A stretch of 64,000 nucleotides of DNA from Candidatus Altiarchaeales archaeon (GTDB lineage Archaea > Altiarchaeota > Altiarchaeia > IMC4 > SCGC-AAA252-I15). Location of the stretch: NCBI GenBank assembly GCA_014727915.1, contig WJMO01000006.1, positions 384,001 through 448,000 on the forward strand. The letters run 5' to 3'. The translations under genes and the position numbers were made by a program. A model generated the notes under the pieces. That model was not told where the DNA came from. It made no database searches and saw only the letters and a program-made list of their open reading frames with translations. Within the stretch, counting starts at the first letter, position 1; every line of letters starts with the position of its first letter. Of this stretch, positions 56,770 through 64,000 are shown piece by piece.

Positions 56770-56829
56770 GGCGGTGTGATGACGCGAACAACCTCTGACA
56801 TATGATGAGTGATGGGCGACCTGACCGCC
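56770..56829 (+). ncRNA. Box C/D guide sRNA, predicted 23S A-loop methylation guide
   Basis: C GTGATGA 56776-82, 12-nt guide, D' CTGA 56795-98, C' ATGATGA 56802-08, 12-nt guide, D CTGA 56821-24; terminal stem GGCGG/CCGCC; TATTAAA about 25 nt upstream. Confidence 0.9.
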
Positions 56830-56932
56830 AAAAAAAGGTCACAAGCACTTCACAGGTGCGTCCCGTGAACGCGGGATGCGCCGTTTGTCGTCGGCAAACT
56901 CCGACGATGAGTGATGGGCGACCTGACCGCCA
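56804..56932 (+). mobile_element. 75-bp hairpin micro-insertion (56831-56905) between perfect 27-bp direct repeats (56804-56830, 56906-56932)
   Basis: GATGAGTGATGGGCGACCTGACCGCCA twice; insert has ACTTCACAGG and two stem-loops; mobility is inferred. Confidence 0.6.
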
Positions 56933-56954
56933 TTTGAAGTTATGTTATGATAAG

Positions 56955-57833
56955 ATGAAGGACGAGATCAAGAGGAGCATCGATCATATGCTGGAGACGT
57001 CGCCGATCCGGAGGACCTTCTGGCACCAGGACGAGAAGGTGGAGGGCCTCAGGTATGGGATACAGCAGGGCGACGACGGAGCCGTGGTCGGAGACCTCGT
57101 GTACAACATGGAAGGCCCCTACCCCTTGAAAACCGGGCGGAAAACCGGTTTACTCCACAGTATAACCGATATCATCGGCATGGGCGCAAGGCCACTTTAC
57201 GCGTTCAATGCCATGCAGGTGGACAGCATAAAAGAGGCGGTTGAGGTTTCTGAGGACCTGAAGAAGCAGGCCAACGGAATCGGCGTTCCCATCATCGGCG
57301 GGAACACCCAGATGGAGAACGACCTGAAGCCGTGCATAAGCTTCGTCGTAGTTGGCAAGCTCATCCGGGAGCCATTGGCCGACTGCGGCTGCAGGATAGG
57401 GGACAAGATAGTCATGGTAGGCCATGTTATGGACGGCACCCTTGGGGAGAGGGTGTACCGGGCGAAGGTCAAGTACAAGACAATGCTCGAACTCTACGAT
57501 GAAGCGGTGGATATCCATGCGGTCAAGGACGCGAGCCGGGGAGGGTGGTTCGGGAACCTGGCTGAGATGCTGGTGAAGAGCAAGCGGGGATTCAAGATAA
57601 CGGCAGTGCCATACGCGAGCCCGACTAGGTACATGGGCACTTACATGATAAGCGTCCCCAAAAAGGAAGTGGACAAGGTGGTGTCAGTGGCAGCCAGGAA
57701 CAAGTGCCCATGCGTGGAAGTCGGGCAGGTGATGAAAGGACTTTACATAAAGCTCGGAGACGAGATGCTGGTAACTGAGGCTAGGATGAAGAAGCTGATA
57801 AGGGGAATGCCCTACCGGAAGCCGAAAAAATAG
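56955..57833 (+). CDS. AIR synthase/PurM-like (SelD/ThiL-related) protein
   Basis: GDDGAVV, DIIGMGARP, IIGGNTQ, KDASRGGW.G.L.EM; start ATG 56955. Confidence 0.85.
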   Translation: MKDEIKRSIDHMLETSPIRRTFWHQDEKVEGLRYGIQQGDDGAVVGDLVYNMEGPYPLKTGRKTGLLHSITDIIGMGARPLYAFNAMQVDSIKEAVEVSEDLKKQANGIGVPIIGGNTQMENDLKPCISFVVVGKLIREPLADCGCRIGDKIVMVGHVMDGTLGERVYRAKVKYKTMLELYDEAVDIHAVKDASRGGWFGNLAEMLVKSKRGFKITAVPYASPTRYMGTYMISVPKKEVDKVVSVAARNKCPCVEVGQVMKGLYIKLGDEMLVTEARMKKLIRGMPYRKPKK

Positions 57834-60018: not shown

Positions 60019-60671
60019 TTTGCCGCCGGCCTAAACCGCGAGGCTACCGCCCCCCAGTTTCAAGTTCTTCCTGACCCCCGAAACGAAATGTGCCATCTAC
60101 GATGGCACAGAATGCATTATCTAACGAATAACTAATTACTTTTTCGGATTTTCAATCAGAAAATCATAAACAAAGGGAAACAACAAAAAGATCACCGCAG
60201 TTAAAATAACACCCAATAACTCCCAAAAACGTGGGTAAAACAGGTTTAATATCAATGGGGAAAAAATGAGATACACTATTCCAACGAATAATCTTCTGTT
60301 TTTATCAACAAAAACAATACCTCCACCAATTAATCCGCCGATATAGAAGCCCAAACGTTTTTGACTATTGTCTAACTGTTTTCCTATAAAATTAACCTAT
60401 GATGGTACTTCCATTAATTAGGGCTAATGATGAAAGAAAAAATACTGATAAAAGTATTATTAGAACCGGTGTGATATTTTTGAAATAAACAATAGTATTA
60501 GGAATTCCTAAAAAGAAAACAGCAGCAATCAGGGTTATTTCAAGATTATTAATTCTATCAGCAGTTGTATAGTCCTTGATTTTCTTCATTGTTGGTAGTG
60601 CGTTCGGTGGGGTCTTTAGACCCCACTGTACTCGCTGCGCGTGTAAACGGAGCGAGCCGTTTGCCGCCGGC
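60019..60671. mobile_element. Decayed mini-island at the tRNA-Phe 3' end
   Basis: 12-bp repeat TTTGCCGCCGGC at 60019-60030 and 60660-60671 (tRNA 3' end); AT-rich cargo; no integrase. Confidence 0.5.
60136..60589 (-). pseudogene. Frameshifted AT-rich membrane protein gene (about 150 codons)
   Basis: MKKIKDY...STIIG* (60392-60589) continues in another frame as NFIGKQLDNSQKRLGFYIGG... to the stop at 60136. Confidence 0.55.
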
Positions 60672-60758
60672 GAGATTTGAACTCGCGACACCTCGGTTTC
60701 TACGCATTCGAGTTTTTGCGCTTCAGCCGAGTGCTCTCCCAGTCTGAGCTACAGCGGC
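60662..60758 (-). tRNA. tRNA-Phe(GAA) with 23-nt intron at 37/38 (60698-60720)
   Basis: GCCGCTG/CGGCGGC acceptor, GCTC/GAGC D arm, CTCGG/CCGAG anticodon stem, GAA anticodon, GCGAG-TTCAAAT-CTCGC T arm; CCA not encoded. Confidence 0.95.
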
Positions 60759-61961: not shown

Positions 61962-62498
61962 ATGGAGGAGATACGCTTTCACGGGCGGGGCGGCCAGGGA
62001 GCCGTCACAGCCGCCATGATACTAGCCGTCGGGGCTTTCAAGGACGGCAAGTACACTCAGGCGTTCCCCAAGTTCGGAGTGGAGCGGCGCGGCGCCCCCG
62101 TGGAGGCGTTCACCAGGATTTCTGAGGATTTCATCAGGAGGAAGAGCCAGGTATACGAGCCCAATTACCTGGTCGTCTTGGACAGCACACTGTTCGGTGC
62201 CGTTGACATAACCGCCGGTTTGAAAGAGGGCGGCATGGTCATAGTCAACACCAACCAGAGCCCGGAAGACCTTGGGCTGAAAGGTTTGAACGTGAAGACA
62301 CTGGACGTTTCCAAACTCGCACTGGACATGCTAGGCAGGGACATCGTGAACACCGCCATGCTCGGAGCATTCGGGGGATTCACCGGTTTAGTATCGCTTG
62401 AAGGGCTGTTCGCTGGCGTAGACGAGCACTTCTCAGGGTCGCTGGCGGAGAAGAACAAGAAACTCGTGGAAGAGGTTTACAATCAATCGAAAAAATAA
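61962..62498 (+). CDS. porG: Pyruvate/2-oxoacid:ferredoxin oxidoreductase gamma subunit
   Basis: [34 protein letters not shown]. Confidence 0.95.
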
Positions 62499-62499
62499 G

Positions 62500-62796
62500 A
62501 TGGTCGACATAGGCAAGAAGAAGGTCGGGGACGTGGAGGTCACAACCGGTTGCGTGCTACCCAGCGACGGGAGCACCCAGAAGAACAAAACCGGCGGATG
62601 GAGGGCACTGCGTCCTGTTACGGACCATGAGAAATGCACCGCCTGCGGCATATGCTGGGTGTACTGCCCGGACGCCTCGCGGATGAAATCGGACGACGGC
62701 AAATACGACTATGTTGAAGACTACTGCAAAGGGTGCGGGATATGCGCGGACGTGTGCCCCGTCAAATGCATCGAGATGGTGGTGGAAGAGAAATGA
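62500..62796 (+). CDS. porD: Pyruvate/2-oxoacid:ferredoxin oxidoreductase delta subunit
   Basis: KTGGWR..RP, CTACGICWVYCPD, YCKGCGICADVCP. Confidence 0.95.
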   Translation: MVDIGKKKVGDVEVTTGCVLPSDGSTQKNKTGGWRALRPVTDHEKCTACGICWVYCPDASRMKSDDGKYDYVEDYCKGCGICADVCPVKCIEMVVEEK

Positions 62797-62891
62797 CCGT
62801 CAACTTCACAGGCATGTCAGGGTGGCTAAGCGAAGCGCGCGCCGCCCATTTTGATGAAACTTTTGGAAAAGTTTCGGTGGAGGAGAAATGA
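62781..62891 (+). mobile_element. 79-bp hairpin micro-insertion (62797-62875) between 16-bp direct repeats; forms a 32-aa mini-ORF at 62793-62891
   Basis: GGTGGAAGAGAAATGA (62781-96) vs GGTGGAGGAGAAATGA (62876-91); ACTTCACAGG 62803-12; palindrome GAAACTTTT-GG-AAAAGTTTC. Confidence 0.6.
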
Positions 62892-64000
62892 AGGACGTGA
62901 TGGAGGCAAGCCATGCCGTGTCAGAGGCTGTGAAAGCCATCGAACCCGACGTAATAGCAGCCTACCCTATAACCCCGCAGACGCACATTGTCGAGCGGAT
63001 CAGCGAGTTCGTCGCCAACGGCGAGATAAAATCAGAGTACATACGGGTTGAGAGCGAGTTCAGCGCCATATCAGCCTGCCTCGGAGCTTCAGCCGCTGGG
63101 ACCCGGGCCTACACGTCAACTTCCTCCCAGGGGCTGGCGTTGATGCACGAGGTACTGTTCATAGTCTCGGGCATGAGATTGCCAGTGTGCATGAGCGTCG
63201 TGAACAGGGCTTTGAGCGCGCCCATCAACATATGGAACGACCACCAAGACAGCATATCAGAGAGGGACACCGGGTGGATACAGTTGTACGTTGAGACCGC
63301 GCAGGAAGCCTATGACATGACCATCATGCAGCACAGGATAAGCGAAGACCCGAGGGTACTGCTTCCGTCGATGGTGTGCATGGACGGATTCACACTATCG
63401 CACGTTTACGAGGCAGCGGACATACACGACAAGAAGGACGTGGACTCGTTCCTGCCAAAGTACAAGCCGGTTCATGCGGTGTTGGACCCGAAGGAGCCAT
63501 TGACGCAGGGGCCCATCGGATTTCCAAGCCACTATATGGAGTTCAGGAGCGAACTATGCAAGGCAATCGACGGTTCGCTCGACGTCATCGAAGAGGTCAT
63601 GAAGGATTACAGCAAGAAATTCCCCTGCACCATCGAGAACTCAAGACCCAAGGAATACTACCACGTGGAAGAGCACAGGATGGAAGACGCGGACGTGGTG
63701 TTAGTCGCCATGGGATCCGTATGCGGCACCATAAAGGTCGTCATAGACGAGCTAAGGGAGAAAGGAGTCAAGGCGGGTTTGTTGAAGCTCATAACCTACA
63801 GGCCGTTCCCGGCCGAACTGCTGAAGGAAAAGCTCAAGGGTGCGGGCAAGGTCGCCGTAGTCGAGAAGGCACTTTCTCCGGGTCTTGGAGGCCCATTGTA
63901 CCATGAGATATCCTCCGCCCTATACGAGTGCGAGGAAAGGCCTGAACTGAGGAACTTCATCGTGGGCTTGGGCGGGAAGGACGTGCGGCTCGACCATGTC
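62888..64000 (+). CDS. porA: Pyruvate/2-oxoacid:ferredoxin oxidoreductase alpha subunit (3' truncated)
   Basis: MKDVMEASHAV..., AYPITPQT, VESEFSA, TSSQGLALMHE, NRALSAPINIWNDHQD; absent from the ORF track because it runs off the window. Confidence 0.95.
   Translation, partial: MKDVMEASHAVSEAVKAIEPDVIAAYPITPQTHIVERISEFVANGEIKSEYIRVESEFSAISACLGASAAGTRAYTSTSSQGLALMHEVLFIVSGMRLPVCMSVVNRALSAPINIWNDHQDSISERDTGWIQLYVETAQEAYDMTIMQHRISEDPRVLLPSMVCMDGFTLSHVYEAADIHDKKDVDSFLPKYKPVHAVLDPKEPLTQGPIGFPSHYMEFRSELCKAIDGSLDVIEEVMKDYSKKFPCTIENSRPKEYYHVEEHRMEDADVVLVAMGSVCGTIKVVIDELREKGVKAGLLKLITYRPFPAELLKEKLKGAGKVAVVEKALSPGLGGPLYHEISSALYECEERPELRNFIVGLGGKDVRLDHV

Follow-up and report, generated by a model that had tools for sequence, protein, structure and literature searches.

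How can an insert lie between two genes of a core operon when, in relatives, the stop codon of the first gene overlaps the start codon of the second? The question is raised by the pyruvate:ferredoxin oxidoreductase (por) genes near the end of a 64,000-nucleotide (nt) stretch of the genome of an uncultivated Candidatus Altiarchaeales archaeon (GenBank assembly GCA_014727915.1, contig WJMO01000006.1, positions 384,001–448,000), hereafter called the window. Here a 79-nt insert and a 16-nt copy of the porD end separate porD, the gene of the delta subunit, from porA, the gene of the alpha subunit. A preliminary description of this junction had noted a bridging open reading frame (ORF), a duplicated gene end and two hairpins, and had proposed that the insertion survives because a stop-free frame relays ribosomes from porD to porA. 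Taken as a whole, the locus is best explained, by a slight balance of probability, as the insertion of a mobile element with target duplication, together with a relay frame that would keep porD and porA coupled.

All coordinates given for the junction refer to the forward strand of the window. porD (62500–62796) ends, as first described, in ...GTG GAA GAG AAA TGA, and its stop is the TGA of a first ATGA (62793–62796). The last porD codons and this ATGA constitute a first target copy, GGTGGAAGAGAAATGA (62781–62796), which the empty sites of relatives have as a single copy. A second target copy, GGTGGAGGAGAAATGA (62876–62891), holds a GGAGG (62879–62883), the ATG of porA (62888) and the stop of a mini-ORF (62889–62891). 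The two 16-nt copies form a direct repeat, 95 nt apart, with one mismatch, and this mismatch turns the GGAAG of copy one into the GGAGG of copy two, similar to a Shine–Dalgarno (SD) sequence. The duplicated porD end with its single mismatch and improved GGAGG had been reported before and is borne out. By our own arithmetic, a 16-mer repeat with at most one mismatch is expected by chance ∼4e-4 times within 261 nt. The mini-ORF (62793–62891) has 32 codons and a stop, begins at the old ATGA, ends in the new one and is translated as MTVNFTGMSGWLSEARAAHFDETFGKVSVEEK, followed by a TGA that overlaps the ATG of porA. It occupies the sole stop-free sense frame of the 79-nt insert, the same frame as is entered from the ATG overlapping porD. 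At both ATGA, 62793–62796 and 62888–62891, stop and start overlap as in coupled gene pairs, and the bridge of 32 amino acids, with an ATGA at either end, is thereby confirmed. Its length follows from a unit (target duplication plus insert) of 95 nt, which is 2 mod 3, and from an element read in its only stop-free frame.

The preliminary description had suggested a comparison with the porD–porA junctions of relatives, where a direct ATGA overlap was expected. The two genes were sought in 49 Altiarchaeales genomes, giving 44 loci and 42 resolved junctions; contig ends truncated two loci, and no usable porD match was obtained from five genomes. A 4-nt overlap, ATGA or GTGA, was found at 16 of the 42 junctions, so that the insert must have entered a former ATGA. 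Thirteen of these overlaps occur in family f1, to which the genome holding the window (G000; 90.6% complete, genus g1) belongs, and include that of the same-genus genome G001. Spacers of at most 14 nt are present at 16 junctions. Hairpin-element inserts occur in six genomes (G000, G002, G036 with two tandem copies, G033, G038 and G028), and other inserts in four. The latter are a 57-nt remnant (G040), a 583-nt ORF (208 residues, membrane-like, with a bPH_3 match below threshold; G025), a MntA/HepT nucleotidyltransferase/RNase pair (G026, locus L023) and a 351-residue ORF with a LAGLIDADG_3 domain that begins at the porD stop (G048, locus L148). In G033 (locus L028), the hairpin element is followed by an ATGA-coupled, membrane-like ORF of 110 residues. 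The diversity of these inserts indicates that the junction is a recurrent landing site. Comparison with relatives thus shows the porD–porA spacer of the window to be a true insertion into what was, judging from present-day junctions, an ancestral 4-nt ATGA overlap.

The closest counterpart is the homologous insert L003 in G002, a member of genus g2 within f1. It is stop-free over 32 codons and ATGA-coupled at both ends. The inserts of G000 and G002 agree in their 95 nt, their borders, the 16-nt extent of the duplication and the GGAGG of the second copy. Their hairpin cores, from hairpin 1 through hairpin 2, are identical at 49 of 56 positions and show compensatory stem changes. Between the two genomes, four-fold sites have reached saturation, with 45 of 134 and 15 of 34 identical. 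The flanks of the insert are no more alike than those of control pairs. Recent recombination moving the insert between the two genomes was rejected, flank identity being raised no further than the last 30 nt of porD. In a PorD+PorA tree, built by a quick method from 36 rows with supports from the Shimodaira–Hasegawa-like approximate likelihood ratio test (SH-aLRT), G000 groups with G002 and G012 (SH-aLRT 96 and 99); L014, L028 and L148 were left out as short matches, and L151 and L154–L157 were never entered. G012 is the sister genome in g2, and its junction is empty. From these alignments and this tree, the por insertion is probably old, shared with genus g2 and lost precisely, via the 16-nt repeats, in one g2 genome (G012). 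One gain and one precise loss would make the simplest history, at a cost in steps equal to that of two independent gains. Either the core would have been kept by selection in place, or the same conserved element would have landed twice.

The second possibility has a fuller form, in which the G000 and G002 inserts are independent, recent insertions into a hot spot that attracts mobile DNA. The junction indeed carries other cargo (the MntA/HepT pair of G026, the LAGLIDADG ORF of G048, the membrane-like ORFs of G025 and G033, and the tandem copies of G036), and the empty junction of G012 and the unalignable 5′ arms of the two f1 inserts point the same way. This form is nevertheless doubtful: two recent events would have to share the 95-nt length, the borders, the 16-nt duplication and the GGAGG of the second copy, neither genome yielded a further copy or a transposase, and the por tree unites the two genomes.

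What is the inserted sequence? It begins with a variable, A+T-richer 5′ arm (62797–62819), in which 8 of 23 bases are the same as in L003, the level of saturated four-fold sites, and which varies in further family members too. Hairpin 1 (62820–62847), the family signature, pairs 62820–62826 with 62841–62847 (7 base pairs) and has an inner 3-base-pair stem, GCG/CGC, inside its loop. This loop reads TAAGCGAAGCGCGC in the window, and the loop that defines hairpin 1 across the family is TAAGCGAAGCGC. A linker, ATTTTGAT (62848–62855), kept as TTTTGAT in several family members, leads to hairpin 2 (62856–62875), whose arms (62856–62864 and 62867–62875) form nine perfect pairs closed by a GG loop and which is also present in L003. 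Both hairpins are therefore found where they were first placed. Hairpin 2 is the defined end of the element and adjoins the second target copy without a gap; in other subfamilies the terminal hairpin likewise directly adjoins the duplication. For the 141-nt stretch, the fold energy is −44.2 kcal/mol (z = −2.76), a stability equalled by 3 of 200 shuffles. Between 62700 and 62960, inverted repeats are limited to the two internal hairpins, with no terminal inverted repeats.

Several other identities were considered for the insert and rejected. As regards known RNA families, the one Rfam 15 hit, to a C/D-box snoRNA model, reached 15.8 bits (E = 1.5), below that family's gathering score of 50, and a C/D-box or K-turn reading of TGATGA meets GATCA or AATCA at this place in relatives. 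A bulge–helix–bulge intron, whose splicing would re-create the overlap in the RNA, is contradicted by an antisense copy in a tRNA-Tyr intron and by the consensus fold of the two por inserts, which has no end-joining helix, although no dedicated test was run. When the window sequence is folded alone, the 5′ arm pairs over a long range with the porA start; L003 does not conserve this pairing. For a tandem duplication of the porD end, no more was seen than a 12-nt, 83% match at another spacing.

By BLAST and motif search, the insert is unique in G000, and its hairpin 1 matched 23 places in G036. A hairpin-1 search pattern (GGCTAAGCGAAGCGCNNGCC, at most one mismatch) matched 8 of the 49 Altiarchaeales genomes, with 21 copies in G036 and one to four elsewhere; the reversed pattern, used as a control, gave none in any of them. 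With one genome per species of bacteria and archaea, the pattern matched 73 stretches. The archaeal matches, titled Altiarchaeota/Altiarchaeales, Woesearchaeota, Nanoarchaeota and Methanosarcinales, consist of the hairpin, often TTTTGAT, and then a second, A+T-rich hairpin. The bacterial matches are in part enterobacterial sequences resembling repetitive extragenic palindromes (REPs), in part chance. In 30 archaeal copies of hairpin 1, the outer stem covaries: the four outer pairs that the pattern leaves free give 27 double-change cells, against 8.2 ± 2.2 in shuffles, and none of the 500 shuffles is as high. Metagenomes contributed four matches, none at por; viral contigs gave no match to the pattern, and an origin from viruses was dropped. 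In the mosaics of G036, frequently located at contig ends, this hairpin is joined to further hairpin modules. By its sequence anatomy, the por insert is a single copy of a small, modular hairpin element that is non-autonomous and is built from the variable 5′ arm, hairpin 1 with its conserved loop, the TTTTGAT linker and, at its end, hairpin 2.

Other copies of the family were met in distinctive settings. In a metagenome-assembled genome titled Woesearchaeota (L063, 1724–1870), a tRNA-Tyr(GTA) gene has a 72-nt intron at 37/38, and this intron is almost entirely an antisense copy of the element, with hairpin 1, linker and hairpin 2. This indicates that the unit is mobile as DNA and not bound to one transcript orientation. 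In two f5 genera, a canonical copy stands directly after the stop of the same gene (L131/L132 in G047, L053/L113 in G033); by eye, this upstream gene looks like the end of a methionine aminopeptidase. Here, too, different genera have a copy at one and the same site.

The duplication at por is one of many. Of 15 element sites examined in G000, 10 have flanking duplications; these measure 14–73 nt, and six are perfect over 27–73 nt. The ten events combine duplication and insert (in nt) as 16/79, 48/74, 29/74, 27/75, 73/58, 71/56, 45/71, 31/79, 17/113 and 14/101, and their units all measure 95–131 nt. Insert length tends to fall as duplication length rises, from 14+101 and 17+113 at one extreme to 73+58 and 71+56 at the other. 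The near-constant unit length in this genome may hint at a length-limited intermediate. Across the Altiarchaeales the duplications measure 7, 14, about 15, 16, 17, 27, 29, 31, 45, 48, 71 and 73 nt, and elsewhere they reach 105 nt; canonical copies in Nanoarchaeota, Woesearchaeota and G033 have flanking duplications of 27–53 nt. The terminal hairpin meets the duplication exactly, the opposite end of the element is variable, and the sequences adjoining the hairpin end have no common word. Targets in G000 comprise the start of a His_biosynth gene, the start of an AIRS-family gene, gene 3′ ends and the 5′ parts of tRNA genes. Read from the flanks of these copies, a long and variable target duplication is the signature of the family's insertion.

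The trpE–trpG junction is a second case of insertion at a stop/start overlap. Two relatives have a plain ATGA there, and this empty junction confirms both insertion and duplication. In G000 (C12:225991–226160; L172, L175), a 74-nt two-hairpin insert lies between perfect 48-nt copies of the trpE end, and the two TTGA are joined by a frame of 41 codons. The second copy repeats 15 codons of the TrpE C-terminus ahead of trpG. In G020, the junction holds a related insert, also with two hairpins; some 15 nt are duplicated there, and a frame of 28 codons links one ATGA to the other. G018 has an 81-nt canonical copy with a duplication of 7–8 nt, in frame with TrpG.

Two gene starts in G000 were affected in a comparable manner. 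At C12:139257–139397 (L173, L205), the first 31 nt of a His_biosynth gene (HisF/HisA-type) are duplicated around a 79-nt element, the 3′ end of which brings a GGAGG 9 nt ahead of the true ATG. The first ATG opens a decoy frame that reaches its TGA 4 nt past the true one. The window itself contains a second family element at 56804–56932, a 75-nt insert with two hairpins, a reversed terminal module and perfect 27-nt flanking copies. Its duplicated target is the start of an AIR-synthase-family gene (ORF 56802–57833), and with a unit of 102 nt the first start reads through in frame, which gives an N-terminal extension of 34 residues.

Does the open frame across the por insert belong to a pattern? 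Six events are start-proximal: por, trpE–trpG in G000, G020 and G018, the His_biosynth start and the AIRS-family gene at 56802. In this order, their units are 2, 2, 2, 0, 2 and 0 mod 3. Read from the first start, none of the six frames meets a stop inside the insert; each terminates at the real start or shortly past it, or else joins it in frame. Six events away from starts have units of 1, 2, 1, 2, 1 and 1 mod 3. If all six events are taken as independent, the open-frame pattern has a chance of ∼0.004; with the three trp events pooled into one, the chance is ∼0.02.

A mechanism may be proposed from these data. The insertion into the ancestral ATGA copied 16 nt of the target, and through this duplication porD keeps its last codons and its stop, and porA has a new SD-like sequence and a new ATGA. 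Ribosomes finishing porD would then re-initiate on the 32-codon ORF, melt both hairpins while translating it, terminate at the start codon of porA and re-initiate there, and translational coupling of delta to alpha would survive the insertion. Selection would remove insertions that lack such a frame. The peptide itself would be without function, and the structured core of the por insert would be retained by selection. The long duplication is the main reason why the por insertion was tolerated, and the relay frame is plausible as a second requirement.

A number of points weigh against this proposal. The open-frame figures are our own arithmetic from open-frame counts, made post hoc on four to six events, and the three trp events have homologous modules in common. 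The openness of the diverged 5′ arm alone has a chance of ∼0.6 for 8–10 codons. The restored GGAGG, 4 nt ahead of the ATG of porA, could drive porA without a relay. Two independent gains in G000 and G002 cost no additional step, and G000, within its 90.6% completeness, has no match to RVT_1, DDE_Tnp_1, Y1_Tnp or the IS1634 family. Finally, the expectation that homologous inserts stay free of in-frame stops holds for L003 and the start-proximal Altiarchaeales inserts and fails elsewhere. In the start-proximal insert L083 of a Nanoarchaeote, the unit is 1 mod 3 and the decoy frame stops ∼30 nt before the real start, and the f5 por copies (G036, G033, G038 and G028) have no bridging ORF, the native f5 junction being a short spacer without overlap.

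In reading a real and unusual structure as an insertion that preserves coupling, the preliminary description was largely correct, and membership in a mobile repeat family had escaped it. Part of its survival argument stands and part does not. The former ATGA overlap, the stop-free L003 and five more open inserts agree with it. The relay, however, is not established as the reason for survival, because the duplication is general to the insertion and alone restores the stop, the SD-like GGAGG and the start.

One competing explanation has a modest share of our belief. The bridging ORF would be a by-product, porA would be translated from the regenerated GGAGG and ATG or from a transcript processed within the insert, and the duplication alone would explain why the insertion is tolerated. 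The duplication would be mechanistic and not selected, since it is also found at gene 3′ ends and tRNA genes; the change from GGAAG in the first copy to GGAGG in the second fits this view, as do the f5 por copies, which manage without a bridging frame, and L083, which has no complete bridge. It is less easily reconciled with the start-proximal Altiarchaeales events, all six open and none of 1 mod 3, as opposed to four of the six other events. The por insert also uses the one sense frame that is open, and its diverged 5′ arm has the same length and is stop-free in both lineages. Insertion with target duplication plus a relay frame stays the preferred reading of the junction.

Another explanation, compatible with either the relay or the by-product, is that the host adopted the structured core as an RNA or DNA element of the por operon that sets the ratio of gamma/delta to alpha/beta. 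The core could act as a stabiliser, offer a site for processing or partial termination, or be a hairpin that binds a protein. Such an adoption is rather unlikely. The 49/56 identity persists beside saturated four-fold sites, with compensatory stem changes and no raised identity in the flanks, but it is also explicable by two independent insertions of a conserved element. The core is single-copy in G000 and G002, which makes selection at the level of the element unlikely, and its loop is conserved across phyla; most relatives, including the sister genome G012, nonetheless have no insert. A T run follows hairpin 1, yet the terminator scan did not flag the insert, and a terminator between por subunits needed in equal amounts would bring no obvious benefit.

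It is very improbable that the 32-residue product is a functional micro-protein, such as an extra peptide associated with pyruvate:ferredoxin oxidoreductase, for although its frame is kept in two genera and its C-terminal half (LSEA.AA.FDETF.KVS.EEK) is similar in both, this similarity mirrors the conservation of the hairpins at the nucleotide level, G000 and L003 have unrelated N-terminal thirds, Pfam gives no match for the product, the same LSEA frame recurs in the unrelated context of an N-terminal extension of TrpG in G018, and most relatives lack it.

The search for a mobilising enzyme gave few leads. RVT_1 was found in none of five genomes searched, and Y1_Tnp (PF01797) in one of the five, G036, as an ordinary IS200/IS605 tnpA–tnpB pair with no hairpin motif in its 3.4-kb locus; metagenome-assembled genomes such as these are incomplete. 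Transposases of the IS1634 family occur in 17 of the 49 Altiarchaeales genomes (eight above the cut-off), G036 among them; within f1, G000 has none and the 20 other genomes one fragment. Seven IS1634/IS701 transposase loci (L163, L166–L171) have no module in common with the hairpin elements, and no autonomous element with the same ends was found among the IS605 and IS1634/IS701 loci inspected. The candidates tried as mobiliser in G000, namely a REP-associated tyrosine transposase (RAYT)/REP system, IS605, an IS4-type DDE enzyme, an IS1634 transposase and a reverse transcriptase, were all rejected, none being found. Casposons, with a duplication fixed at 14–15 nt, are a poor fit to the variable duplications of this family, and no Cas1 search was made.

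Comparison with known systems reveals partial likenesses only. With REPs and bacterial interspersed mosaic elements, which RAYTs mobilise in bacteria, the family has in common short, G+C-rich, imperfect hairpins that are dispersed, occur in mosaics with other modules (as in G036) and lie in transcribed operon spacers. It differs in that the archaeal copies mostly have (T)CA and then the stem, without a GTAG or CGTC tag, in the lack of a RAYT-like gene beside the elements in the five genomes searched, and in its archaeal hosts. REPs are not known for long target duplications. PMC2817692 lists, in its Table 1, Citrobacter and Cronobacter REP sequences whose core, TAAGCGnAGCGCA, is the same as the archaeal loop core. 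This identity was also seen in L055 and other enterobacterial loci, for which convergence and common recognition are both possible.

Miniature inverted-repeat transposable elements, or MITEs, are likewise small, non-coding, non-autonomous and structured, with copies patchy across lineages. The passages on archaeal MITEs in PMC11602168 place the highest density in Candidatus Altiarchaeum and a Woesearchaeal genome, groups that carry the present element, and define MITEs by terminal inverted repeats and target duplications of 2–10 bp. Our family departs from this definition in its lack of terminal inverted repeats, its one variable end and its duplications of 7–105 nt. Palindromes derived from IS200/IS605 insert without target duplication beside a fixed tetra- or pentanucleotide, whereas duplications are present here and no common word is found at the hairpin end. 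Long variable direct repeats are a feature of the hairpin elements and of the IS1634 family, the one group known to make them, and this behaviour is the only link between the two. In the passage concerned of PMC2266710, IS1549 and IS1634 are given direct repeats of 8–514 bp, without a mechanistic model, and the IS1634 family is described as diverse in archaea.

The G018 copy in TrpG and the window's copy in its AIRS-family gene appear to be translated within a host protein, as Rickettsia palindromic elements (RPEs) are. RPEs, and inside operons also Correia elements and enterobacterial repetitive intergenic consensus sequences, are palindromic selfish elements that persist in expressed regions because one frame through them is open. 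RPEs sit inside genes and are translated within host proteins, and they are not known for a long target duplication. The por copy differs from RPEs in its position at a stop/start overlap and not within a gene. The junction also resembles classical ATGA coupling, the canonical 4-nt overlap being present at both ends of the mini-ORF and, in relatives, directly between porD and porA; it would differ by having two couplings in series across a 32-codon spacer ORF of mobile-element origin. Target-primed insertion of short and long interspersed nuclear elements gives one precise end, one variable end and duplications of variable length. In contrast with these, the archaeal family has no A-rich tail, and RVT_1 is missing from the five genomes searched. 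In the literature consulted, no description was found of the element, of its long variable duplications, of its preference for gene starts and stop/start overlaps or of junction-duplicating inserts; the MITE lists in the supplements of PMC11602168 lay outside this comparison.

At E values up to 0.5, the two-hairpin subfamily occurs in 16 of 21 f1 genomes, and its copies frequently lie in the 5′ part of a tRNA gene. By eye, it was seen in the 5′ part, around the D-arm region, of tRNA genes at L191, L181, L197, L192 and L186 in f1 relatives and at C3:201962, C3:113832 and C11:99147 in G000. At these sites, 15–59 nt of the tRNA start are duplicated, at times with the upstream region, and the whole tRNA gene remains downstream; RNase P could strip the element as a leader. 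In the window, a trp-type two-hairpin element and a tRNA-Phe(GAA) gene with a 23-nt intron (60597–60661 / 60662–60758, reverse strand) are directly adjacent, the element lying at the 3′ end of the tRNA. This tRNA was missed by the default tRNA scan and found by ARAGORN with introns allowed. Two further G000 copies adjoin sequences that resemble tRNA 3′ ends by eye.

The names of the por genes are supported by NCBIfam and Pfam. Upstream of porD, on the forward strand, lies porC/porG (61962–62498), the gamma subunit gene (Pfam POR, 1.3e-37; NCBIfam NF006321, 252.5 bits against an equivalog cut-off of 225). The porD product has two 4Fe–4S motifs and matches Fer4 families and TIGR02179 PorD_KorD (above the subfamily cut-off), as well as PorD_Arch with 107.5 against 120. 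porA (62888–64000) continues past the window end and matches POR_N (2.5e-76), PFOR_II and PorA_Arch (542.1 bits against a cut-off of 550). The order gamma, delta, alpha within the window, with the beta subunit lying past its end, is that of a porCDAB operon.

What could this mean for the archaea concerned? A tentative picture, broader than the por locus and drawn from sequence comparison, is that Altiarchaeales and some DPANN lineages harbour hairpin elements that move by an undescribed route, with a precise hairpin end, a ragged opposite end and duplications from 7 to >70 nt, and with neither a transposase nor a reverse transcriptase encoded in the genome. These elements would rebuild their targets and offer ribosomes an open frame, and at por the core would have been kept as an operon RNA. 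Such a mode of transposition, with long variable duplications and no recognisable enzyme, is without a mechanistic model. The near-identity of the loop with enterobacterial REP cores raises the question of a common binding protein or of convergent DNA chemistry. For annotation, gene callers will be misled by inserts of this kind, which duplicate gene ends, extend N-termini and create short decoy ORFs. If the picture is true, the duplication restores what the insertion cut, be it a stop/start overlap, a gene start and its ribosome-binding site or the 5′ half of a tRNA, and the elements would colonise the interiors of essential operons at almost no cost. Stop/start overlaps of essential operons are usually considered closed to mobile DNA, and yet the por junction holds an element that was probably inherited across genera. 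The presence of the same signature at trpE–trpG, at a histidine-biosynthesis start, in an AIR-synthase-family gene and at tRNA 5′ ends suggests that selfish DNA has a general means of staying nearly invisible in compact archaeal genomes.

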